Shown: piece after piece, positions 3,900-17,617 of the stretch
Position numbering within the stretch: position 1 is the first letter of the stretch
Layout of the letters: each line of letters begins with the position of its first letter
Source: Alphaproteobacteria bacterium
GTDB lineage: Bacteria; Pseudomonadota; Alphaproteobacteria; Micavibrionales; SZUA-601
Reading direction: 5' to 3'
DNA: 35,904 nt
Assembly: GCA_031412695.1 (NCBI GenBank)
Contig: JANODM010000225.1
Span: 1-35,904 of the forward strand
Position numbers and translations under genes: made by a program
The notes under the pieces: generated by a model
Told to the model about the DNA's origin: nothing
Seen by the model: only the letters and a program-made list of their open reading frames with translations
The model's database searches: none

Positions 3900-5726
3900 T
3901 CAATCCGTCGCCAAGATATATTTATACACTTGATACGCTTCCCACACGCGCTGCACGTAATTGCGGGTCTCGTAAAACGGAATGCGTTCGACCCAATCGA
4001 TCCAAGAACGCGGATCAGTATTCGGGTCACCCATGGCGGCCACCCATTTATCGACATTGCCGGGGCCTGCGTTATAGGCAGCCGCCGCTAATGGCACATC
4101 GCCGCCATACCGCGCCAGCATCGATCCCAGATACGCCTGACCCAAGACCATGTTGTGGCGTGGATCAAAAAGCTGCGCCGTACTGCGATGCGCGATGCCT
4201 TTTTTGCGTGCGATATCATTGGCCGTGCCGGGCAAAATTTGCATCAAGCCCATGGCGCGTGCCGGACTTTGCGCATAAGGATCGAACATGCTTTCCTGAC
4301 GAATAATTCCCAACGTCAACGCGGTTTCTACTTCGGCATTACGTGGCACATTCAATTTTGGAAACAGCGCGTCACCGATCAGCTTGTTTTTTTCATAGGC
4401 GGCTTTGGCGGCAGTCAAGCTAACTTTTTCGCTGCGTAAGCTACGCGCAATTGGAATTACCTGGTGCGGCGCATCCTTGTTCTGCGCCAATAACGTGGCC
4501 AAAAATTGATCACGCTCTTTTTCAAAGCCTTTTTTGTGCAAATAGCTTGCGGCGTCGATCAAGGAATGGCGCAAGGATGCGGCGGGGATGCGCGTGTTGC
4601 GTTTAAAGAATGTGGCGTAATACCCGGCGACATCGCCGTCCTTCAAGCCTTGCAACGCATAAGCCGCCATCTGGCCGTAAAACACATGCATATGTTGTGC
4701 AGCGACGCGATAAAATTGTTTAGCGCGTTGCATGTCGCCTGTTTTCGCCGCTGCCATGCCCGCCCAATAATTTGCGCGCGCGACCGAGATCGGCGATTTG
4801 ACGTTTGTGGCCATGCGCATGAAATGACGCAACGCCGTGTCGGCACGATCAAGTCGTGTCAACGCCAACCATCCCGCCAACCATTCCGCATCGGCCAATT
4901 CAGGGCCGGTATCAAAGCCGTGTTTTGAGGCTAGATGATACGCGGTCGGAAAATCGTCACGCTCAAGCGCGCGCCGCGCCAGCAACGATCGTTCTTTCCA
5001 CCACAGAGCAGAATACGTAGCCAGACTTTTGGATGTTGCGCGCGACAACGCAATGGCGGCGCGGCCGTCAAATCCTTTTTGCCGATAATAACGCGCCAGG
5101 TCGAAATTCAATCCCGCATCATTCTGTGACGGCAAATTGACCGTCGCGCGCCCGTCAAGACGTTGCAACGCCAAGCGACTTAGGCCTATCGCACGCGCTT
5201 GGCTGCCGACATAGTTCAATGCTTTTTCCGCACGTTGCGTGTTATTGGCCCATAACAACGCATCCACCCGCGCATGACGCGCCGTGTTCGAGATCCAATT
5301 GCCGTAACGGCCTATGATCGCGTCTTGTTGGGTGGCATTAAACGCCCCCAACGCCCACATATCGTTCAAGAATAATTTGGCGCGTGCCATGTCGCCGTTT
5401 TGGACAAGCGTATTGAAATATAAAAACCGCCCATTATCGCCGACGGGGGGATATTTTCCCAGCCAGGCCAAAATAATGTCCCTTTGAGGTGGGTTGTCGT
5501 TAAGGGCTTGTTCGGCTTGAACGCGTAAAATGGGGGTCTCGGGCCAATCCGGATGCGTGTCGATCAAACGGCGGTATTCCGCAAAGGCATAACACGTACG
5601 AGGGTCCCGCAATCGCAACCAGGCTTCGGTGTCAGCCGAAACGGAAGCACTTGCGAACCGAGGAAACGCAAGTAAAATAATACCGGATGAAATAAGCAGG
5701 CATAACCACAAAAGGCGTCGCATCAT
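3900..5726 (-). CDS. slt: Soluble lytic murein transglycosylase (Slt70-like)
   Basis: Signal peptide MMRRLLWLCLLISSGIILLAFPRFASA, long helical N-terminal region, catalytic SLT domain ESMFDPYAQSPARAMGLMQILPGTA and AAYNAGPGNV. Confidence 0.85.
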   Translation of the reverse strand: MMRRLLWLCLLISSGIILLAFPRFASASVSADTEAWLRLRDPRTCYAFAEYRRLIDTHPDWPETPILRVQAEQALNDNPPQRDIILAWLGKYPPVGDNGRFLYFNTLVQNGDMARAKLFLNDMWALGAFNATQQDAIIGRYGNWISNTARHARVDALLWANNTQRAEKALNYVGSQARAIGLSRLALQRLDGRATVNLPSQNDAGLNFDLARYYRQKGFDGRAAIALSRATSKSLATYSALWWKERSLLARRALERDDFPTAYHLASKHGFDTGPELADAEWLAGWLALTRLDRADTALRHFMRMATNVKSPISVARANYWAGMAAAKTGDMQRAKQFYRVAAQHMHVFYGQMAAYALQGLKDGDVAGYYATFFKRNTRIPAASLRHSLIDAASYLHKKGFEKERDQFLATLLAQNKDAPHQVIPIARSLRSEKVSLTAAKAAYEKNKLIGDALFPKLNVPRNAEVETALTLGIIRQESMFDPYAQSPARAMGLMQILPGTANDIARKKGIAHRSTAQLFDPRHNMVLGQAYLGSMLARYGGDVPLAAAAYNAGPGNVDKWVAAMGDPNTDPRSWIDWVERIPFYETRNYVQRVWEAYQVYKYILATD

Positions 5727-6597
5727 GTCCCACCATCAGAACGAAAAAACAGTATCGGCACAGACTAAAGCGGTGACGGTAAAAGGCCAAGCCCTTACTG
5801 CATTTAAATCCGCGCAAGACGGTTTTACTTTGGTTGAATTGGCGATCAGCATTTTCATCATCGGAATTTTATTAGGCGGTGTTTTATATTCCGAAGAATT
5901 ATACCGCATCGTACAAGTCCGCCGCGTGATGAGCGACATCAACAGCGTTTCCGCCGCGACAAAGGGCTTCCAAGAAAAATACGGCACCGTGCCGGGCGAT
6001 TTCGCGTTGGCAACTACGCGCATTCCGAATTGCACCTTGGCTGTATCCAATTGCTACAGCGGCGACGGCAATGGTTTTGTCGGTCAAGTATATGGCCCCG
6101 GCTCATCGGGTTGGGACCAAGACCAAGCACGTAACGTCAATTTGCCTGAAGTCGAAACGACGATGTTCTTCAAACATTTGGCGTTGGGTAATTTCATCAA
6201 AGGCGTCAATCCGAACTCGAACCCCAGTCAGCCACAATGGGGCGTAACGCACCCTGAATCCTCTGTCGGAGGCGGATTTACCGTGTTTGCCGATACGCAC
6301 AGCGCGGGATCCAGCATCTCGATACGATTGCAATCACGCGTTTATTACGGCGGTATGCCGGGGGTCGACGCGAATAACGAGCGTCCGTTCACCGTCAAAC
6401 AAACCATGTATATGGATACGAAATACGATGACGGTCGTGCCATGGGCGGCGAGATGCGCGGTATTCCATACAACCATCCGAATTATTTCCCGGCCTGCCG
6501 GAAAATCATGCCGATCGGACGCGAGGAATATAACACCGACCCGGCCGATGGCGTGCTCGACAGCAAAGTCTGTCAGTTCCATTATATCTTCCATTAA
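5725..6597 (+). CDS. Type IV pilin / pseudopilin-like protein with prepilin N-terminal cleavage-methylation motif
   Basis: QDG|FTLVELAISIFIIGILLGGVLY matches the class III signal (G-F-T-L-x-E plus hydrophobic helix). A C-terminal Cys pair (PACRKIM...DSKVCQFHY) fits a D-region disulfide. The ATG 5725 start gives a 33-aa leader; GTG 5773 would give a 17-aa leader. Confidence 0.7.
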   Translation: MSHHQNEKTVSAQTKAVTVKGQALTAFKSAQDGFTLVELAISIFIIGILLGGVLYSEELYRIVQVRRVMSDINSVSAATKGFQEKYGTVPGDFALATTRIPNCTLAVSNCYSGDGNGFVGQVYGPGSSGWDQDQARNVNLPEVETTMFFKHLALGNFIKGVNPNSNPSQPQWGVTHPESSVGGGFTVFADTHSAGSSISIRLQSRVYYGGMPGVDANNERPFTVKQTMYMDTKYDDGRAMGGEMRGIPYNHPNYFPACRKIMPIGREEYNTDPADGVLDSKVCQFHYIFH

Positions 6598-8379: not shown

Positions 8380-11300
8380 TTACAGCAACGTATCCGTGCA
8401 TGGCGTCATCAAACCGTCATTCGAATAGCCGTTATAACTGCCGCCTCCGGGCTGTGCACCATAGGGAACACAATTGCTATTCGGATAAGAATACGGATTA
8501 CCTGTTCCCGGTGGTGCAAACAAAGGATTAGGTACATAGGTTGGCGGTACAACTTGTTGGCCTGGAGGGGCGTCGACATCCAAATACTCGACCGTGCAAG
8601 TCGGCGGCAAAGCTTGGTTGTTGAAGCCTAGATTCGGTACATCAAGACCGGGTGGTGTTCCCAAGGCAATCGGAACGCCCACGCCGTATTTCAACTCGCA
8701 GATTTGTCTGCCTGTTTCCTCATTCGGGATACCGCCGCCTGTGGATAGGCCCATGGCTTCGTACATTTGATCCATAGCATTATCCGCATATTCGAAAGCG
8801 TACAAGACTTGCCGATTACGGCGCGTGACCGGATCTGTGTACAATGATCTAACACCAGTACAATTAGCGGCTAAGAGAGAGCCTGCATCAATCCCCATAT
8901 AAAAGATTTTCGTATTGGGGAAATTCCGACCAATAATCCCGACCAACGAATCTTTTTGTCCTCTTGGGCGGACCATAGGAATTGGATAATTGAATACTTC
9001 GCGTTGAAAATCATCATTACCACGCGCGCGGCACCATTGTCTGCGTGTTGTTTCGTGTTCAATTCCATAGGATCTGCGAACGGCTGCAAGATCGATACGG
9101 GTAAATGTTTCTGTGTAATCCCAGTCGATGCAGAATCCCAAGATGCGGCGGTCGCAGCGTCGCGTTGTCAAGCGGCATTGATAGTCACTGGGAAGGTCGA
9201 CAGGTGCTTCGCAGAATTTATTGCTAAAGATTGTTGATCGGTCCGCTGGATCAGCAACACCGTTTGACATGACGACTAAACCTGCGGGCGCATTCGGATT
9301 AGCGCCCAATGTCGTCTGGATCAAATTTGTGATCGACGGATCAATCGATGAATAAAGCGGGTTATTGCCGCCTGTATAACTGCCGCGTGCATCGAATTTG
9401 TCTTTGATGCGTTCTTGCACCTGTTTCCACCAATAGGTTTGATCGACGTTTTGCGTGTTATTCAACGGATCCAAATCATTATCCAATGTAAGGGCAACGG
9501 GGCGTCTGCTGACCAGCGGATCAAAAGGACGGTCGACACGATTATTGATAAATTCGGAATAATACAGATTTACGCCATAGGGCAAATTCGTCAGCAAATT
9601 CGATCGTGTGAAATTATCGACAATTTGCATACGGTTTGCAAAAACAGAAAGCGGTAAGTAGGTTCTGTCAGGGAAAGGCATTGCATTCGTGGGCACGAAA
9701 GCATAGTCAAAGATACCGCCGCCAAGGCGCATGGCTGGTTCGCTGCCGTCAACGACACCGTTACCGTTCAAATCTTTGACGCGTGTCACGGCATCCGTGA
9801 TGCACACACCGGGGCAGGTTGACTGACAGGATAATAAAGGTCCGTTGCCATCAACATCTTCGGTGAGACCGAAATTAGATCCTTTCAACGTATCTTCGGA
9901 TGCATAGCTTTGAGCGCAGGATCCGTACATATCGTCTTGCACGACATTAGGATAGCAGTCCTGGCCGCGCATCAAGGCTGATTTCATGCGGTCGACGTTT
10001 TTTACATCGCTCAAACCGTCGATCATGATCTCTTCTTGGCGTCGCAATCCTGAGTCAATATAGCGTGCCGCGTCGGCCGCCAACGCATCATGTAGGCGCG
10101 TGCCTTCCTGGACCGGTTCATTTGCGGCAACCCAATTGGCCATGGTTTCGTCACGAATATTATCGCGGACGTTCGCGATATTTTGCCATGTTTTGGCGGC
10201 AACGCACGCTGCTTGGCGGCTTCCGGGTTTGAACAAATTGGCTATTGTCGCGCGGCACGATGTTTGGGTCGGCGTAATGGGGCGTCCGCCCATGGCCATG
10301 TTGGCGGAGCGGTCGACTACGACGGCGATCGCGCGGATTGGATCGCCTGCGGAACAGGTTTGACCCAACGCAAAACACCCCGTGACGGTCGGATTGTCGA
10401 CCATCAATTTATTGAATAAGGTTGTTGTAAATTGGCTGTCAAAGGCATAGGTGTCGATGATAGAATTTAAATTCGCATCGCTGGAAAAGAAATTCGCAGT
10501 CATCGTTGTACTGGGATCGCCTGGCGTCGGCGCTTTGGTGACGGTTTGCGTGCCGCCCAACAAATTTAAGGCATAATCACCCCATACGGTGCCGGTCGTC
10601 ACATTCGTTTCCGGCAAATTCGTATTTGGATCAATATAGTCATAGGCCATTGAGCTGACATTGACTCCGCCAACTTGTGTGGGGATGAGCGTGACAGGAT
10701 GACGCATGACCAAGCGTTTATTCGTAATCATCTTGCCTGTGCCTTCGAACGGTGTACCGACAGGGCATCTGTCTTCAAGCAATACTTCGTTCTTCTCGCA
10801 TTTCGCACCGACATAACCGACATTGAGAACAATGCCGGGGATGGTATTTTGACCGTTATTGCGCGTTACGGTACATTCTCTGCGTTGGACGCGGGCAATC
10901 ATTTGGCCTGTCCAGCCTTTACCGCAACTGCGATCATTCGGATCGGGAATAAAACGTGAGGTCGCCGCATCGAAAACCGGGTTCGACAATAATTCGTCTT
11001 CGCTGTTGTCGTTGTCGCATATGATCGTCGTGCCCATATCGCCGGGATTGACCGGGGCGCATACGTTACCGTCATCGATACATAAAATGTTGGTATTGGC
11101 ACCGGGCGTACCCAACAGACGTGCTTTCCAATCGGGCACGACCGCATTCGTCAATTCCAATTCAGTTAAATTATTCGGTGCAGCCGCGCCGCATTTTGTT
11201 ACGACGTCATTCGGTCTTCCGTCTTTGAATACTTTTGTCGTGATGACGCCGGGAACGCGGCGGCCATTATCATCGGGGCAAGATGACATCGTGATGGATG

Positions 11301-11802
11301 CGATTTCGCTTGAATCTTGAGGTATGATGTTGGCTGCAGCCGATGTCACGGTCAGTTCTAAAATCGGCGAGTTGACGGCGATATCGGTTATGGTTCCGCA
11401 ATCAGGAGGCGCGACGGTTTTCAAGCTGTCAGGTTTGAAGCGTTGTGATAAATCGCTTTTCATGCGTTCGGCCAAAGCACCCGGCAAGGCACCGCCCGAT
11501 GTTAGCGAGGATGTGTTCGGAATATACGAAACGACTTTGCGCGCGGCACCCACGCCGCATTCAATGGTTTTCAAATCAGCGGTGTTCACGATACGGCCCG
11601 GTGAGGCCAGTAATTGTTGCGCGGTGTTTGCCAAATCGGCAGCAGCTTTTTGGGCTTGCACGGTTTTTGCGGCCTCATCGGTTTGCGCCAGAACTTTTTT
11701 CTCGCGTTCTTCGTTACACGCAACCAAGGAAAAACAGATCGCGACCATACACAAGGTGTGTGCGATTCTGTTGGATAACAAATGTGACATGCGGCGTTTC
11801 AT
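8380..11802 (-). CDS. Very large (1140 aa) cysteine-rich putative lipoprotein, unknown function (possible vWA-like / Ca-loop adhesin-type protein)
   Basis: Uninterrupted 3.4-kb ORF. Lipobox MVAICFSLVAC|NEE. Many Cys residues. AIAVVVDRSANMA ... LVVMSNGVADPAD ... KIFYMGIDAG resembles a split vWA fold. Asp/Asn-Gly loops EDVDGNGPLL and KDLNGNGVVDGSE. Pro/Gly/Tyr-rich C-terminus. Confidence 0.8.
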   Translation of the reverse strand: MKRRMSHLLSNRIAHTLCMVAICFSLVACNEEREKKVLAQTDEAAKTVQAQKAAADLANTAQQLLASPGRIVNTADLKTIECGVGAARKVVSYIPNTSSLTSGGALPGALAERMKSDLSQRFKPDSLKTVAPPDCGTITDIAVNSPILELTVTSAAANIIPQDSSEIASITMSSCPDDNGRRVPGVITTKVFKDGRPNDVVTKCGAAAPNNLTELELTNAVVPDWKARLLGTPGANTNILCIDDGNVCAPVNPGDMGTTIICDNDNSEDELLSNPVFDAATSRFIPDPNDRSCGKGWTGQMIARVQRRECTVTRNNGQNTIPGIVLNVGYVGAKCEKNEVLLEDRCPVGTPFEGTGKMITNKRLVMRHPVTLIPTQVGGVNVSSMAYDYIDPNTNLPETNVTTGTVWGDYALNLLGGTQTVTKAPTPGDPSTTMTANFFSSDANLNSIIDTYAFDSQFTTTLFNKLMVDNPTVTGCFALGQTCSAGDPIRAIAVVVDRSANMAMGGRPITPTQTSCRATIANLFKPGSRQAACVAAKTWQNIANVRDNIRDETMANWVAANEPVQEGTRLHDALAADAARYIDSGLRRQEEIMIDGLSDVKNVDRMKSALMRGQDCYPNVVQDDMYGSCAQSYASEDTLKGSNFGLTEDVDGNGPLLSCQSTCPGVCITDAVTRVKDLNGNGVVDGSEPAMRLGGGIFDYAFVPTNAMPFPDRTYLPLSVFANRMQIVDNFTRSNLLTNLPYGVNLYYSEFINNRVDRPFDPLVSRRPVALTLDNDLDPLNNTQNVDQTYWWKQVQERIKDKFDARGSYTGGNNPLYSSIDPSITNLIQTTLGANPNAPAGLVVMSNGVADPADRSTIFSNKFCEAPVDLPSDYQCRLTTRRCDRRILGFCIDWDYTETFTRIDLAAVRRSYGIEHETTRRQWCRARGNDDFQREVFNYPIPMVRPRGQKDSLVGIIGRNFPNTKIFYMGIDAGSLLAANCTGVRSLYTDPVTRRNRQVLYAFEYADNAMDQMYEAMGLSTGGGIPNEETGRQICELKYGVGVPIALGTPPGLDVPNLGFNNQALPPTCTVEYLDVDAPPGQQVVPPTYVPNPLFAPPGTGNPYSYPNSNCVPYGAQPGGGSYNGYSNDGLMTPCTDTLL

Positions 11803-11927: not shown

Positions 11928-12827
11928 TTAATTTTGGGGCGAAGAGTTTAGGGCGATTTCCAAGGTCAGATGACCGATGCCGAAACGACTTGTTAATTCC
12001 GACCGAAGCACACGACGCAGATCTTCGGTATCGGTGCCCGGCACGGTCGAGACAAAAGCATTTAATGCTGTTTTTGAAGTACTTAATGGCCATATATGTA
12101 AGGAAGTAAGGCCCTCGACCCCCGGCTGGCTTCGGATAAAGGCGTCGATGGCGTCGCGGTCGATCGAGGTGGGCTTGCCATCCAGGGCTAAAATGGCGGC
12201 CTCGCGCAAGACCGGCCATGACCCCCATAAAATGACAGCGGCGATCAGGACGCTTACGACCGGGTCCAGCCAGGACCACGCCGTATAGGCCATCGCGATG
12301 GCGGTGATGACCACCCCGGCCGAGATTACCGCGTCGGCCACCATATGAATCATCGCACCCTTGATGTTGATGTCATTTTGGTTTTTCGAAAGCAACCACG
12401 CGGTCGACCCGTTGATAATAATGCCCAATGTCGCGACTGCACCGACAATAAGCGGTGCGGGACTGGCGGGTTCGAAAAAACGATTCAAGGCTTCAAAAAT
12501 AATCCAGGCCGATGATCCGACCAAGGTGACGCCGTTGAATAGAGCTGCGAAAATCGATACGCGCCCCATACCAAAGCTGAAACGCGACGAGGGGTTCATA
12601 TCGCGTTGCGATAAATGATACCCCAACCACGCAAATAGTAACGCCAAGACATCGCCAAGGTTATGCGCAGCATCGGCAATCAAAGCGAGAGAGTGCGTAT
12701 AAAATCCGAAACCGAATTCCACCGCGACAAACGCCGCGTTTAGGCTTGCGCCGATAGCGAAACCGCGATGAAAATTTTTAGGGCTGTGATGCGAACAGGA
12801 TGCGTTCGGTGCATGGGAATGGACCAT
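11928..12827 (-). CDS. Cation diffusion facilitator family metal efflux transporter (CzcD/ZitB-like)
   Basis: His-rich N-terminus MVHSHAPNASCSHHS, TM2 HSLALIADAAHNLGDV and TM5 IHMVADAVIS (the HxxxD pairs), and a C-terminal cytoplasmic domain. Confidence 0.9.
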   Translation of the reverse strand: MVHSHAPNASCSHHSPKNFHRGFAIGASLNAAFVAVEFGFGFYTHSLALIADAAHNLGDVLALLFAWLGYHLSQRDMNPSSRFSFGMGRVSIFAALFNGVTLVGSSAWIIFEALNRFFEPASPAPLIVGAVATLGIIINGSTAWLLSKNQNDINIKGAMIHMVADAVISAGVVITAIAMAYTAWSWLDPVVSVLIAAVILWGSWPVLREAAILALDGKPTSIDRDAIDAFIRSQPGVEGLTSLHIWPLSTSKTALNAFVSTVPGTDTEDLRRVLRSELTSRFGIGHLTLEIALNSSPQN

Positions 12828-12896: not shown

Positions 12897-13580
12897 TTAC
12901 GTTGGTTTGTAACCACCCGGTTTTTTCGGCTGATCGTTATCATCCGGGTCTTTTGTATCATCATCTAAATCTTCTGTATCGTCATCCGGGTCTTCGAATA
13001 TATCGTTATCAAATTTATCAGGTATCGTTTCATACGGATTTGCAGGTGTGATGATTACTCGATTCGGGTTCTCGCCTTCCATCATATCTCTAAGCTTCAT
13101 ATCACGCAGCATCATTTGATGACGTATCCAGTTCATTGCTGTAAGGCCACGGGATATATCCTTGTCCTTTAGATTAGTATTTCTAACCTGGATTGATGTT
13201 GGCGGGATTTGTTTTGAGGCAAGAATAGTATTCCTGATACGAGACTTTTTTTCCAACAATTCTTGTAATTTTTTTTCTAATTTATCATCATAAAGACCCG
13301 CCGTGTCATCCGATTCTCCTTTCAAAATAGGGTCCCATTTTTCCTCCCATTTTTCTTGAGTAAGATCGTCGTGTTTTTCCTGAACAAGGTGAAAGAATAC
13401 CTGTCCTAGAGGAAGCGGACCATTCGGATCTAATGTGAGATCGGCTTGGACCCGATCAGCGATTTTGTTTGTCAAAGGACGCATGGCATTAACATCGCTG
13501 CCTTGATCTCTCAAGATAAAGCCGATGGCTTCGTAAATATCGTCATCGCGAAGATTAAAAGGTTCAATTTTATCGGTCAT
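12897..13580 (-). CDS. Tandem-array paralog 1 (unknown family; long acidic C-terminal extension)
   Basis: 227 aa. N-terminal block DDIYEAIGFILRD is shared with the other array members. C-terminal tract EDPDDDTEDLDDDTKDPDDNDQPKKPGGYKPT. Confidence 0.7.
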   Translation of the reverse strand: MTDKIEPFNLRDDDIYEAIGFILRDQGSDVNAMRPLTNKIADRVQADLTLDPNGPLPLGQVFFHLVQEKHDDLTQEKWEEKWDPILKGESDDTAGLYDDKLEKKLQELLEKKSRIRNTILASKQIPPTSIQVRNTNLKDKDISRGLTAMNWIRHQMMLRDMKLRDMMEGENPNRVIITPANPYETIPDKFDNDIFEDPDDDTEDLDDDTKDPDDNDQPKKPGGYKPT

Positions 13581-13622
13581 ATCGAGAAAGATACGGCAAA
13601 AAAATTAAAAAACCAATCATGA

Positions 13623-14192
13623 TTAGTAAATTTCGGGTTTTTGTTTGCTACGAACAGCCCACGGTTGCGTTGTTTTCAATATCGGATCTTTATCTTGTAA
13701 AAACAGATTGATGCTTAGGGCATCCGCTTTGGCTTGATCTTTACGTTTCAAAACCTGATGTTGCACCATAGAATGAAAATGTGTGCCGTTGAACGCATAA
13801 GGGTCATTGAGCCGATCGCTTTTGCTGAATAATGTATCTTCGACTGGCTCTGCTTTTTTAGCTGCCAAAAGATTTTTCCGTACGTCCTCTGGCATTGGGT
13901 TTATGACGGGCCATGTCTCTCGTGCCAGATCGTCCCCGAAATGTACTGTTAGTGGTTCCCACATCTCGCATGTTAGTCTGTGCAACATTTCGGCTTCACT
14001 AATGAAAATATCTTCTTCGTTGGAAGGGTCTTGATAGATGTCGTTGCCGATTTTCGCGGCCAGATTTTCCAAATCGTTGCGATTATAGACTTGATTGTCG
14101 GCAAAACCAAAAAGGACCCAGCCGGTTGCGCGGTACATTTGATGACGCGTCATCGTATGTTTTTGAGGGGTGATATCGGATTTGATCGGCAT
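13623..14192 (-). CDS. Tandem-array paralog 2 (unknown family)
   Basis: 189 aa. Blocks RATGWVLFGF, MWEPLTVHFGDDLARETWPV, MPEDVRKNLLAAKK. Confidence 0.8.
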   Translation of the reverse strand: MPIKSDITPQKHTMTRHQMYRATGWVLFGFADNQVYNRNDLENLAAKIGNDIYQDPSNEEDIFISEAEMLHRLTCEMWEPLTVHFGDDLARETWPVINPMPEDVRKNLLAAKKAEPVEDTLFSKSDRLNDPYAFNGTHFHSMVQHQVLKRKDQAKADALSINLFLQDKDPILKTTQPWAVRSKQKPEIY

Positions 14193-14235
14193 ACGCTAAG
14201 CCTATCGTATCATGTGCTAAAAGGCAAATGAATGG

Positions 14236-14799
14236 TCACGTCGGTCCACGATTAGCCCAGTGTTGACGAATTGGCATCTCAGGGTTATCGAAGGCCGTAT
14301 CCTGTAAAAATTGCGTGATGGTATTTTGCACAGAAGCTTCATATTTTCTGTCGCGAAGTTGTTTTGATACCAAACAAAAAAACCGTATTCCCACTTTTGC
14401 ATGAAGATCTGTGTCACAGGCCTTTGTATTATAAGCATCGTATAGATGCGGCGCTTCGTCTTCGGCAGCGAAAATATTCTCGCGCACGTCAGCAGGCATC
14501 ACTTCCATAACAGGATAAGTTTCGCGTGCCAAATCATCACCGAAATGTGCTGTAAGATCGTTCCACATACTGTTGGCTACAAGATGGATGATGTCGCCGT
14601 CTATGAAATCGGAATTAGGTTGTGCGGCGATTTCATCGTAAATATGATTGCCAAGGTCTTCGGCTAATTCCGTGATCCCTTTGTCGTCATACGTATCGCC
14701 GTGAATTGATTCGAATAATAACCACCCCAACGCCTGATGCATCTGAAAATAACTCATGCGGTTGATTTTGCGGCGTCCGGGTTCGGGAATAGGGGTCAT
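14236..14799 (-). CDS. Tandem-array paralog 3 (unknown family)
   Basis: 187 aa. Blocks QALGWLLFES, MWNDLTAHFGDDLARETYPV, MPADVRENIFAAED. 25/41 identical to paralog 2 over the core block. Confidence 0.8.
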   Translation of the reverse strand: MTPIPEPGRRKINRMSYFQMHQALGWLLFESIHGDTYDDKGITELAEDLGNHIYDEIAAQPNSDFIDGDIIHLVANSMWNDLTAHFGDDLARETYPVMEVMPADVRENIFAAEDEAPHLYDAYNTKACDTDLHAKVGIRFFCLVSKQLRDRKYEASVQNTITQFLQDTAFDNPEMPIRQHWANRGPT

Positions 14800-14831
14800 G
14801 ATATCACATCAAAAAAACAAAAAAAGAAGGG

Positions 14832-15353
14832 TCAATCAAATAAGCGTTTAGGCGGTTTTTTTTGATCAGGTATCGATGTCACATTGGCAAGAAAGTTTTC
14901 GACAGCATCTCGTCGATTGTCGACATACTCGCATACGCTTGAAATAAACGTAACGCCGCGCATCGCCAAGTTGTCATCTAAAGATGGTTTATGTGCTTCA
15001 TCGGTTGGTTGCAACACGCCATTTTTTGCAGCGATCATATTTTTGATGATATCGTCGGGAAGCAGGACCGGCGGTTTCGAGTGAAGATCGATCGCTTGCA
15101 AATCGGGCCCGAAACATCTGGTCAGTTGCGGCCATTGTTGCTCGACTACATGGGACAAGACAGATTTTTCAGAAATCGTTTTTTCCGTCCATTTACGCGA
15201 GGAATCGTTGCACAGCGCATGACCGACGCGTGCAGCCAAATCCTCTTGTTCAGGATAATAGCGGATTGTGCACAAGGCCCAGCCGATCGTTTCTTGAATC
15301 TGTCGATGGCTAATCGTGTAAGATTGTTTGTCGGGTGTCGGGTCAATCAGCAT
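14832..15353 (-). CDS. Tandem-array paralog 4 (unknown family)
   Basis: 173 aa. Blocks ETIGWALCTI, QWPQLTRCFGPDLQAID, LPDDIIKNMIAAKN. Confidence 0.75.
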   Translation of the reverse strand: MLIDPTPDKQSYTISHRQIQETIGWALCTIRYYPEQEDLAARVGHALCNDSSRKWTEKTISEKSVLSHVVEQQWPQLTRCFGPDLQAIDLHSKPPVLLPDDIIKNMIAAKNGVLQPTDEAHKPSLDDNLAMRGVTFISSVCEYVDNRRDAVENFLANVTSIPDQKKPPKRLFD

Positions 15354-15411
15354 GATATGAAACTATTTTTGAACGGATAGGAAATAAAAACGCAATTTAT
15401 ATTACAAACAT

Positions 15412-15975
15412 CTAAGCAAGTTTAGGCGGCTTCATAGTAGTCAAAGACGGCTTTTCATCTGTCTTATTTGCTGAAGGATCGCTGTTTAAAAAGCCGTGCA
15501 ATGCTTTTTGGCATTTCTTTCTGGCACGTTCTTCACCGTTCAAGCGGCGTTGGAAATTTAAACCCTCTACAATGTACGGATCACGCGTTTGCAGTATTTT
15601 TACTTCGCGATCAGTACGTGGCTGTTTCGAACTCATAATCGGGGGAACTTGTTTTGCTGATATGGCAAAGTCTCGCACATAATCGGGCATTCTGTCGGCA
15701 TACTCCGTTTCGCTCATGGCCAGTTCCGCGCCGTAATAAGTCGAAAAACGCGGCCACATAACATTCGCCAATGCATGAAGCATGACGCCTTGCCTGTTTC
15801 CTCGAGCTTCTTTGCGGTGTTCGATCCGTTTCACCTCATCAGTTACTTTGCCAACGATGCGATTCATATCGCACTCATCGCTAACCAGTCCTACCAGTAA
15901 ACGGCCGGTGGTTTTTTGTATGTCTAAAGCAGTCATATCCAAAGGTTGTGCGGGGGTTTTCGTTGTATCATTCAT
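15412..15975 (-). CDS. Tandem-array paralog 5 (unknown family)
   Basis: 187 aa. GGAG 7 nt upstream of the ATG. Blocks KTTGRLLVGL, MWPRFSTYYGAELAMSE, MPDYVRDFAISAKQ. Confidence 0.75.
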   Translation of the reverse strand: MNDTTKTPAQPLDMTALDIQKTTGRLLVGLVSDECDMNRIVGKVTDEVKRIEHRKEARGNRQGVMLHALANVMWPRFSTYYGAELAMSETEYADRMPDYVRDFAISAKQVPPIMSSKQPRTDREVKILQTRDPYIVEGLNFQRRLNGEERARKKCQKALHGFLNSDPSANKTDEKPSLTTMKPPKLA

Positions 15976-16014
15976 TTTTTTCTCCGCGTCGGCAAATGTT
16001 CAGGGGGGCAGTTT

Positions 16015-16455
16015 TTAGAATAAAATCGATATTTTCGGTGTAGTTTGGCGGCGGTAACGTTCCTCACGCACTTGCTGGCACAGATTGTCGCCCGCCATCA
16101 TTTCATCGGAAATAGTGTGAGAGCCGTTCCCTGCCTGGGTGCCTCGCATTCTTTTCTTTAAAATGATCTTGTTCTCGCGGGCTGCCAAAATAATGTCGCA
16201 AATAGGATCGGGCATCGTGGCGTCGATCCGCGTATCATGCGCCAGATAAGACAGAATTTCCGCTTCATCCACAGGACTGGTTTGCGCATCACGGCGCACT
16301 TTTTTTGCATCGACCTGATTGCACAGATGACTGACCAACGACGTCATTTCTTTCGCGTTGGCCGCCATGCTGCGAATGCACCAACCGATCGCGGTCTGCG
16401 CATCTTCCGGGGTGATATAAAGGTCTTGTGTCGATTGCGGGGCTGGACGATTCAT
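16015..16455 (-). CDS. Tandem-array paralog 6 (unknown family; shortened, lacks the FG-x-DL block)
   Basis: 146 aa. Blocks TAIGWCIRSM and MPDPICDIILAAREN are present; the central W..L...FG.DL block is absent. Confidence 0.7.
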   Translation of the reverse strand: MNRPAPQSTQDLYITPEDAQTAIGWCIRSMAANAKEMTSLVSHLCNQVDAKKVRRDAQTSPVDEAEILSYLAHDTRIDATMPDPICDIILAARENKIILKKRMRGTQAGNGSHTISDEMMAGDNLCQQVREERYRRQTTPKISILF

Positions 16456-16478
16456 TTTTTATTTTTCTTTAGTGTGAA

Positions 16479-16973
16479 TCAGAGGGGTTGCGGTCGGCTT
16501 TCCACGGTTAAATCATGCGTTTGCACAGTCATGTTCGCACGCATGGCTTCTTCGGCGCGCGCGGCACGTTTTCTTTTAACGCGATTTGTTAATTGAGTGA
16601 AAAAAATCTCGCCGTCTGCGATAGGCTTTGTTGCTAAAGCCATGTCTTCTTTTTGAGTAATGGGAGGCTGAACAAGCTCGGGCGGATTAAATACTGCATC
16701 TTCGATATTTGTATATACATGGGTAGGAATTTTTTGAGTCTTCAAATTGTTTAAGCGTTCTTTGGCCATCACATGAACGGCGTCACCAAGATACACGCCG
16801 CGCATGTGGCCATGCGGTCCGTCAAGAATTCCATCGGCAACTTTGTCCAATAGATCATCTCTCTCGTCTAATCCTTCTAGGCTTAAGGGGGGAACCATGT
16901 AACCCAACATTTCGAGCATTTTTAACTTACGCATCTGTATACCTAGCGGTAGGGGAGGATGTGATTGGGTCAT
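16479..16973 (-). CDS. Tandem-array paralog 7 (unknown family; most divergent)
   Basis: 164 aa. Only the N-terminal block is recognisable (LKMLEMLGYMV, LLDKVADGIL, AVHVMAKERL). Same strand and spacing as its neighbours. Confidence 0.6.
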   Translation of the reverse strand: MTQSHPPLPLGIQMRKLKMLEMLGYMVPPLSLEGLDERDDLLDKVADGILDGPHGHMRGVYLGDAVHVMAKERLNNLKTQKIPTHVYTNIEDAVFNPPELVQPPITQKEDMALATKPIADGEIFFTQLTNRVKRKRAARAEEAMRANMTVQTHDLTVESRPQPL

Positions 16974-17024
16974 AAACTAAGCCTATAAGAGCGAGGGGTT
17001 GAGAGACAAGAGGATTATTTGGGT

Positions 17025-17534
17025 TCAGGTCGGGCGGTATAGAGGAGAAGGTGGATCACGTTCGTCAATCAGAGTATTTAAAAGTTTTGTCGTTAAGCGA
17101 GTAGCTTCCCAGCGTAAGAATACTTCATGATAAAAGCGCGTACCTTTCAACAATCTAGGATCAGAGCCTTGTCCTAGTGACGTAGACTCTATTGCAGGCA
17201 TGTAGTTGGGTTTTGTTCGGTCAGCCAATAAAAGGAGGGGAGTAACGAATTCTGGAATTGTTTCGTTTAATTCGGTTTCTTTTTTTAAATCGTTACCAAA
17301 TTTTTCTTTCAATTTCGGCAACAATGCTTTTCCGGCCAGGTGCAGAACCAGACCATGATCAGGGCAGGATTTTAAAACATTGTTTGAATCTAACCATATC
17401 GCATCGGAGATATTTTCGTACAACTCATCCATATTGATTGTGTCGATGGCATCATCGTCTGCCAAACAACCAAGCGCGAAAAAAATTTCATGTTGATTAG
17501 CATCTGGACCGTCGGGAGGCATTATATTTGTCAT
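17025..17534 (-). CDS. Tandem-array paralog 8 (unknown family)
   Basis: Blocks EIFFALGCLAD, LLPKLKEKFGNDLKKETEL, IPEFVTPLLLLAD. ATG 17534 (MTNIMPPDG) is preferred over the TTG at 17570 that opens the ORF; ATG 17522 is also possible. Confidence 0.7.
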   Translation of the reverse strand: MTNIMPPDGPDANQHEIFFALGCLADDDAIDTINMDELYENISDAIWLDSNNVLKSCPDHGLVLHLAGKALLPKLKEKFGNDLKKETELNETIPEFVTPLLLLADRTKPNYMPAIESTSLGQGSDPRLLKGTRFYHEVFLRWEATRLTTKLLNTLIDERDPPSPLYRPT

Positions 17535-17617
17535 AGAGCAAAGATTATGGGATTCGCAGGCGCAACGCAAGCTAAAACAGAAGTTTTGTTCTTTTATAAG
17601 GGGTTGATTTGTATTTG

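Follow-up and report, generated by a model that had tools for sequence, protein, structure and literature searches.

Here we describe a tandem array of eight genes in a 35,904-nt stretch of DNA (the window), which is contig JANODM010000225.1 of assembly GCA_031412695.1, from an alphaproteobacterium of the Micavibrionales lineage SZUA-601. The genes, named g1 to g8, lie on the minus strand between a CDF-family cation efflux gene and dnaK. Comparison of the members with one another and with public databases shows them to be real, protein-coding, in-situ tandem duplicates of one lineage-restricted gene. Duplication in situ is indicated because adjacent genes are the most alike: g2 and g3 form the most similar pair, and g4 and g5 come next (BLASTP and phmmer). 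Each member is predicted to be a small soluble helical protein of about 165 amino acids (aa). Among the new findings, the family is restricted to one poorly sampled alphaproteobacterial clade. In addition, gene copy number differs between relatives in the slot upstream of the CDF gene, making it a variable hotspot; on contigs that include dnaK, this slot corresponds to the dnaK-CDF interval.

Family membership of the eight genes

The preliminary description of this DNA reported eight minus-strand open reading frames (ORFs) that fill positions 12897-17570 and are separated by 42, 43, 32, 58, 39, 23 and 51 nt. The lengths and coordinates match the ORF listing (Table 1), and the gaps recomputed from the coordinates are identical. 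Five of the members (g2, g3, g4, g5 and g8) are mutually significant in BLASTP and phmmer comparisons (1e-31 to 1e-5). A profile built from these five recovers g6 at 28 bits and g1 at 22 bits, and the best of 1500 shuffles scored 5.9. Similarity confined to the second and third paralogs (g2 and g3), with the remaining blocks due to chance, had been named as grounds for refutation; the other members are also significant.

Profiles were also built by leaving out one member at a time, and each member was scored against 1000 shuffles of itself. Seven members scored 22-118 bits (E 1e-5 to 1e-35) and g7 alone scored 9.7 bits. The top shuffle score over all members was 10.3 bits, but every member outscored all 1000 of its own shuffles; the best of g7's was 6.5. 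In hhalign, g7 aligned to the other seven with P 0.007 over 119 collinear columns. By these comparisons seven members belong to one family beyond doubt. For g7, membership is taken as probable on account of its position, strand and size.

Three motif blocks had been described as shared by the array. All three are visible in the alignments, but g6 and g7 lack the central block with the FGxDL motif, and in g1 an insertion breaks it up. The only invariant positions are two glycines, G24 and G136 (g2 numbering). The remaining conserved positions are mostly hydrophobic, while polar positions, isoelectric point (pI, 4.6-9.3) and tails vary freely. From g8 to g1 the net charge of the last 20 residues is 0, 0, +3, +2, +2, 0, +3 and -1. 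The C-terminal tail of g1 is very acidic and Asp-rich, and Asp makes up 15% of the whole protein. No transmembrane segment had been noticed, and indeed the highest 19-residue Kyte-Doolittle mean is below 1.0.

A search across the members for His/Cys enrichment and for conserved ligand positions found neither. A metal-binding role, an idea that came from the CDF neighbour, was rejected on these two grounds.

Table 1. Coordinates of the array, its boundary elements and its CDF-side neighbours in the window. E-values are from BLASTP/phmmer comparison with g2.
Feature	Coordinates	Strand	Product	E-value against g2	Leave-one-out score	Remarks
g1	12897..13580	-	227 aa		21.8 bits, E 8e-6	Last of array; central block with insertion
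g2	13623..14192	-	189 aa		118.5 bits	Most central member of the family
g3	14236..14799	-	187 aa	1e-31 (35% identity over 172 aa)	80.1 bits	
g4	14832..15353	-	173 aa	3e-13	48.1 bits	
g5	15412..15975	-	187 aa	2e-13	51.3 bits	Basic, pI 9.3
g6	16015..16455	-	146 aa		30.1 bits, E 2e-8	FGxDL block deleted; C-terminus short
g7	16479..16973	-	164 aa		9.7 bits, E 0.04	Most divergent; without FGxDL
g8	17025..17570	-	181 aa from TTG 17570	6e-9	29.9 bits, E 3e-8	First of array
g8-dnaK spacer	17571..17943					Aligned with dnaK-CDF spacers of L084, L088, L089 and L090
REP-like palindrome cluster	17621..17719					dnaK-side boundary; fold z-score -3.0
CDF-family cation efflux gene	11928..12827	-				Pfam Cation_efflux 8e-40 and ZT_dimer; locus anchor in all relatives
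Orphan lipoprotein gene	8380..11802	-	1140 aa			Lipobox LVAC; downstream of the CDF gene, same strand

Database searches and predicted fold

The family had been called unrecognised, and this description holds. No match was found in any sequence or fold library searched, and no characterised family was reached at high probability. None of the eight members attained a curated threshold in Pfam or NCBIfam. No PADLOC family was matched by any member at E up to 1, and PHROGs gave one member at E 0.0065 and otherwise nothing. A profile search of PDB sequences returned nothing below E 0.05. No match was found by tblastn against 50,697 phage records and 72,556 plasmids or in a scan of IMG/VR contigs. 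A word-indexed search of 5.8 billion protein clusters with g2 returned only g2 itself. An exhaustive HMMER search with the family profile covered 1.84 billion representatives of about 15 billion proteins and recovered the eight members and one other protein, P0012 (E 8e-4). The similarity to the latter, a repeat-rich YadA-like trimeric autotransporter, covers four short stretches, and the hit was dismissed as spurious.

AlphaFold2 models were obtained for g2 (pLDDT 77, pTM 0.69) and g5 (pLDDT 79, pTM 0.72), and both share one topology. The predicted order is a short beta strand and three helices (H1-H3), followed by the FGxDL loop, helix H4, another short strand and a long C-terminal helix. 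The C-terminal tails are Pro/Lys-rich, and both models show them as disordered. Foldseek searches of the PDB with the two models, and of BFVD with the g2 model, gave no match (best E about 0.6, TM-score at most 0.28). The predicted fold is provisionally considered new; the claim is provisional because the models rest on an eight-sequence alignment.

Age, constraint and composition

The proportion of synonymous differences (pS) is 0.69-0.76, which is saturated even in the closest pair (0.76). The proportion of nonsynonymous differences (pN) is 0.45-0.54. No dN/dS estimate between paralogs is possible with pS at saturation. These values bear out the earlier view of an old or fast-evolving repertoire with no recent duplication. 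The protein sequences have clearly been constrained since duplication, as judged at the codon level, because pN is below pS. Taken with the two invariant glycines, the pattern fits old duplicates that have a conserved scaffold but share no catalytic site.

It had been stated beforehand that evidence of most frames being unexpressed pseudogenes would count as a refutation. The DNA could be decaying or functionless, as expressed junk or as pseudogenes that remain from an old amplification. The family has no homologs outside the clade, a conserved block has been lost in g6 and g7, and a Shine-Dalgarno sequence is not obvious in most members. The last feature is shared by the contig's housekeeping genes, most of which also lack one. 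Moreover, all eight frames are intact despite saturated synonymous sites, with pN below pS, and AlphaFold2 folds g2 and g5 confidently into the same topology. We regard functionless DNA as extremely improbable.

Several members had also been described as more AT-rich than the flanking housekeeping genes, and GC content is indeed lower in the array. It is 0.41-0.51 against about 0.50-0.55 in the flanks, and GC content at third codon positions (GC3) is 0.37-0.57 against 0.50-0.62 in the housekeeping genes. AT-richness is found in other lineage-specific ORFs of the contig as well.

Copy number in related genomes

Relatives of the clade were examined as metagenomic contigs fetched via the closest homologs of the CDF protein. 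On three of them the interval between dnaK and the CDF gene is empty. The two genes are 263 nt apart in L084 (DnaK 90% identical), 243 nt apart in L088 (DnaK 90%) and 234 nt apart in L089 (DnaK 86%). L084 is fully syntenic, with the gene order SLT-smpB-x-lipoprotein-CDF, then divergent dnaK. In L090 (DnaK 90.5% identical over the N-terminal 148 aa) the interval holds two orphan ORFs of 161 and 184 aa on the CDF strand. Two other contigs end before dnaK. One of these, L172, has a 173-aa orphan ORF 41 nt upstream of the CDF gene and thus at least one ORF. The other, L081, encodes the closest CDF protein (55%) and has at least two paralogous orphan ORFs directly upstream of it. The number of genes directly upstream of the CDF gene in the seven related genomes is therefore 0, 0, 0, at least 1, 2, at least 2 and 8. 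The slot is read as a variable hotspot because of this range from 0 to 8.

The L081 pair are the top two matches of the family profile outside the window (13.7 and 12.2 bits among 22,837 ORFs in 2.68 Mb). In hhalign the pair aligns to the family with 67% probability (P 5e-5), collinear over 154 columns. The L081 ORFs are thus probable distant members. One of them, L081_205, was used as a bridging query and proved to be an orphan itself. The ORFs of L090 and L172 scored below 0 bits with the hidden Markov model and below 1% probability in hhalign against the family, and a second profile iteration recruited neither. Their only links are weak N-terminal ones between L090_161 and L081_205 (E 0.003) and between L172_173 and L090_161 (E 3e-4). 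We treat the L090 and L172 ORFs as positional equivalents of the array and claim no homology. Loss of similarity to below detection in a faster-evolving family is plausible because the neighbouring lipoprotein is itself only 27-32% identical across the clade. This range is that of its positional orthologs in L081, L084, L088 and L089, in which DnaK is 86-90% identical where it is on the contig.

Farther afield, the dnaK loci of 80 species-representative genomes contain no family member and no CDF gene beside dnaK. DnaK identity to these genomes is at most 79% (72-79%), and those that are named are all Alphaproteobacteria.

An unrelated tandem array was observed on a further contig, L085 (12695-16838, minus strand). 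It comprises five orphan paralogs of 258-277 aa with pairwise E down to 3e-41; elsewhere on this contig are a CDF homolog and genes for a Flp/Tad pilus. Such tandem arrays of orphans may be frequent in these lineages.

Organization and borders of the array

The CDF gene starts 69 nt downstream of g1 on the same strand, and the divergent dnaK lies 373 nt upstream of g8. A scan for promoter and terminator consensus sequences gave counts in the array that were not above those of shuffled sequence and no convincing internal site. The absence of such sites, together with the short gaps (23-58 nt), suggests a single transcription unit for the array, perhaps running on into the CDF gene. The lipoprotein gene may belong to the same unit.

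Besides the TTG at 17570, g8 has an alternative start at ATG 17519, which gives 165 aa and is the public gene call (P0008). The ATG appears to be the more likely start, with a better fit to the family alignment. A 16-nt motif that includes the start codon, ATAGGCTTAG[C/T][G/T]TATG, is present directly upstream of g2 and g7 only (14190-14205 and 16971-16986). Possible explanations are a leftover of the duplicated unit and a translation or initiation signal.

The spacer between g8 and dnaK has two parts. The dnaK-proximal ~200 nt are conserved across the clade, and the g8-proximal ~190 nt are specific to this genome. A plus-strand block upstream of dnaK (17800-17870) is kept in L084, L088 and L089. 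It contains CTTG (17810-17813), N19 and TTATATGT (17833-17840). Going by the known alphaproteobacterial sigma-32 consensus, this arrangement resembles a sigma-32-type heat-shock promoter and is putatively that of dnaK.

A cluster of palindromes had been noted at the dnaK-side boundary and was found there. Its REP-like elements include a perfect 9-bp stem, CCCTCTCCC-TTT-GGGAGAGGG, at 17699-17719 and a related copy at 17621-17637, with an inverted repeat GAGGGGTTA/TAACCCCTC between the two. The rest of the contig has no similar element, and the number expected by chance is 0. GC-rich palindromes that echo this cluster (e.g. TGCCCGCGCAGGCGGGCA and CCCCCGCCTGCGCGGGGG) were also seen in L172 (1-110), upstream of its 173-aa orphan ORF. 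A 90-aa ORF in the spacer (17660-17932, minus strand) runs through the palindromes of the window (..SPKGRGMGERG..) and is almost certainly no gene.

These features raise the question of whether the array, as an anti-defence or decoy set, is cargo of a phage or mobile element that inserted itself between dnaK and the CDF gene. GC and GC3 below those of the flanks, a palindrome cluster at one border and the same slot without an array in relatives would all agree with this. However, the borders show no flanking direct repeats, integrase, tRNA or other mobile-element hallmark. Apart from the single PHROGs hit, nothing was found in the PHROGs, PADLOC, phage, plasmid or IMG/VR collections. The 4.7 kb consist only of paralogs of one gene, and the other lineage-specific ORFs of the contig are AT-rich too. 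Integrated cargo is very improbable.

The position of the array could instead reflect service to its neighbours. The proteins would then be cytoplasmic adaptors or regulators, acting in the stress response through the shared dnaK promoter region, with the CDF metal exporter or in biogenesis of the giant lipoprotein. In the window and in L081, L090 and L172 alike, the array or the orphan ORFs share the strand of the CDF gene and immediately precede the CDF-lipoprotein pair. The gap between g1 and the CDF gene contains no convincing terminator, and the array adjoins the conserved sigma-32-like promoter region. However, the neighbours do not need the family, since L084, L088 and L089 keep the dnaK, CDF and lipoprotein genes without it. 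The members have no His/Cys enrichment and no conserved ligand set, and neither the lipoprotein nor any other ORF of the window resembles the family in a profile search. Eight strongly diverged copies are also hard to reconcile with a housekeeping accessory. An adaptor role is quite unlikely.

Neighbouring genes and the rest of the contig

The window is chromosomal housekeeping DNA. It encodes an ABC ATPase, UDG, hemC, SLT, smpB, dnaK, dnaJ, uvrC and queA, and further a class II tRNA synthetase, an aldehyde dehydrogenase, PBP2 and mreBCD. No tRNA and no Rfam RNA family was found on the whole contig. The 1140-aa lipoprotein has no Pfam or PDB relative. It evolves very fast and is presumably located at the cell surface.

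Two membrane-protein-like ORFs of 136 and 92 aa with an ATGA overlap lie between dnaK and dnaJ (19936-20621, plus strand). The pair has only sub-threshold Pfam matches, TssN (22.7 bits, cut-off 30.3) and DUF7378. The 136-aa ORF is extremely AT-rich (GC 0.29, GC3 0.25), which suggests a recent foreign insertion. A 322-aa ORF (5629-6597, plus strand) has a prepilin-type N-terminal methylation motif (Pfam N_methyl, 3.7e-7). It overlaps the 5' end of the SLT transglycosylase ORF (3900-5726, minus strand) by about 98 nt, and its true start is probably further downstream.

Possible function of the array

The family is new, and its genomic pattern is familiar. The conservation pattern suggests that the members share a stable scaffold whose binding surfaces have diversified. 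It does not point to an enzyme or metal protein, because the conserved features are a hydrophobic core and two invariant glycines with no invariant polar set and no His/Cys enrichment, while pI and tails are variable. Our best guess, offered tentatively, is that the array is an exported, effector-like repertoire of diversified specific binding proteins. The proteins would be used against other cells, whether host, prey or competitor, and would be exported most probably by a route that requires no Sec signal. Targets, or variants of a target, would differ from one paralog to the next. Among the conflict roles an effector-like one is favoured because of the orphan status, the new fold, the in-situ expansion, the lower GC3 and the presence/absence variation. 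Effector repertoires, for example the Bartonella Beps (PMC5381568), typically show these traits.

Several points weigh against export and an effector-like use. Pfam scans of the larger ORFs on the 35.9 kb contig found no secretion-system gene, toxin or host-interaction domain. The earlier remark that the window has no toxin, secretion or phage gene is likewise in keeping with these scans, which show housekeeping genes only. A known translocation domain or motif was sought in the members and none was detected. The tails are not consistently basic (-1 to +3 over the last 20 residues) and offer no recognisable type IV signal. Many lineage-specific tandem families of free-living bacteria are cytoplasmic and unrelated to conflict.

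The Beps are among the closest known parallels (PMC5381568, PMC6509941). Like the array, they are alphaproteobacterial and lineage-restricted, arose by tandem in-situ duplication followed by strong diversification, and have unstructured C-terminal tails and no Sec signal. The Beps are larger, contain FIC and BID domains, have a positively charged tail and adjoin virB/virD4. In contrast, the array has no BID or FIC domain (no Pfam match), its tail charge is inconsistent and no type IV secretion system gene is on the contig. Similar expansions are described in Parachlamydiaceae, in which large within-lineage paralog families, often in tandem, are read as an adaptation to interactions with other organisms (PMC4209131). 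Those families have recognisable eukaryote-like domains (F-box, BTB, LRR), whereas the present one has no recognisable domain or fold.

The array could also be a repertoire of orphan immunity proteins or antidotes. These would be cytoplasmic, with each one counteracting a different polymorphic toxin delivered by competitors. Fast-evolving orphan immunity genes are documented as arrays in Vibrio cholerae (PMC5361080) and as AID/rAID clusters in Bacteroidales (bioRxiv 10.1101/471110; PMC12247911), and a general framework is available (PMC3482391). The present array has several traits in common with such arrays of type VI secretion systems (T6SS) and polymorphic toxins. Both consist of small proteins encoded on the same strand that evolve quickly, vary in number among relatives and appear to bind rather than catalyse. 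The members are also soluble without signal peptides, and they combine a conserved scaffold with a variable surface.

However, the known orphan immunity arrays are located 3' of T6SS effector-immunity modules or beside recombinases. They comprise several families acquired by horizontal gene transfer, and their genes are close to cognate immunity genes of other strains (PMC5361080, PMC12247911). The present array lies between housekeeping genes and is made of eight in-situ paralogs of one family, not a mix of acquired families. Pfam scans found no toxin, T6SS, Rhs, CdiA or recombinase gene on the contig. No known immunity family (SUKH, Imm, Tsi, Tdi etc.) was identified by Pfam or NCBIfam for any of the eight members, and no homolog among the 1.84 billion representative proteins could act as a cognate immunity gene. 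We consider an immunity repertoire unlikely because these features of the documented arrays do not apply here.

Secreted effectors, immunity proteins and an anti-defence or decoy set had been listed as functional options with no choice among them. They are no longer equally likely, as both phage or anti-defence cargo and acquired orphan immunity are weakened. The probability left over from the readings considered here is assigned to other, unnamed functions.

Significance

The practical value of the family is limited until a function or partner is found, and it has no bearing on a long-standing open question. The locus does provide a clean natural example of the growth of an orphan family, with copy number from 0 to 8 over seven related genomes. 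Divergence is fast enough to erase nearly all homology, although DnaK remains about 90% identical. It is possible, though doubtful, that the dnaK-CDF hotspot harbours a new fold diversified into target-specific binders, which would make it a new effector/immunity class, unrelated to anything in current databases, with the ORFs of L081, L090 and L172 as its fast-diverged orthologs. If the conflict repertoire is true, the known bacterial effectors or immunity proteins would gain a new fold and family from a barely sampled branch of the Alphaproteobacteria.

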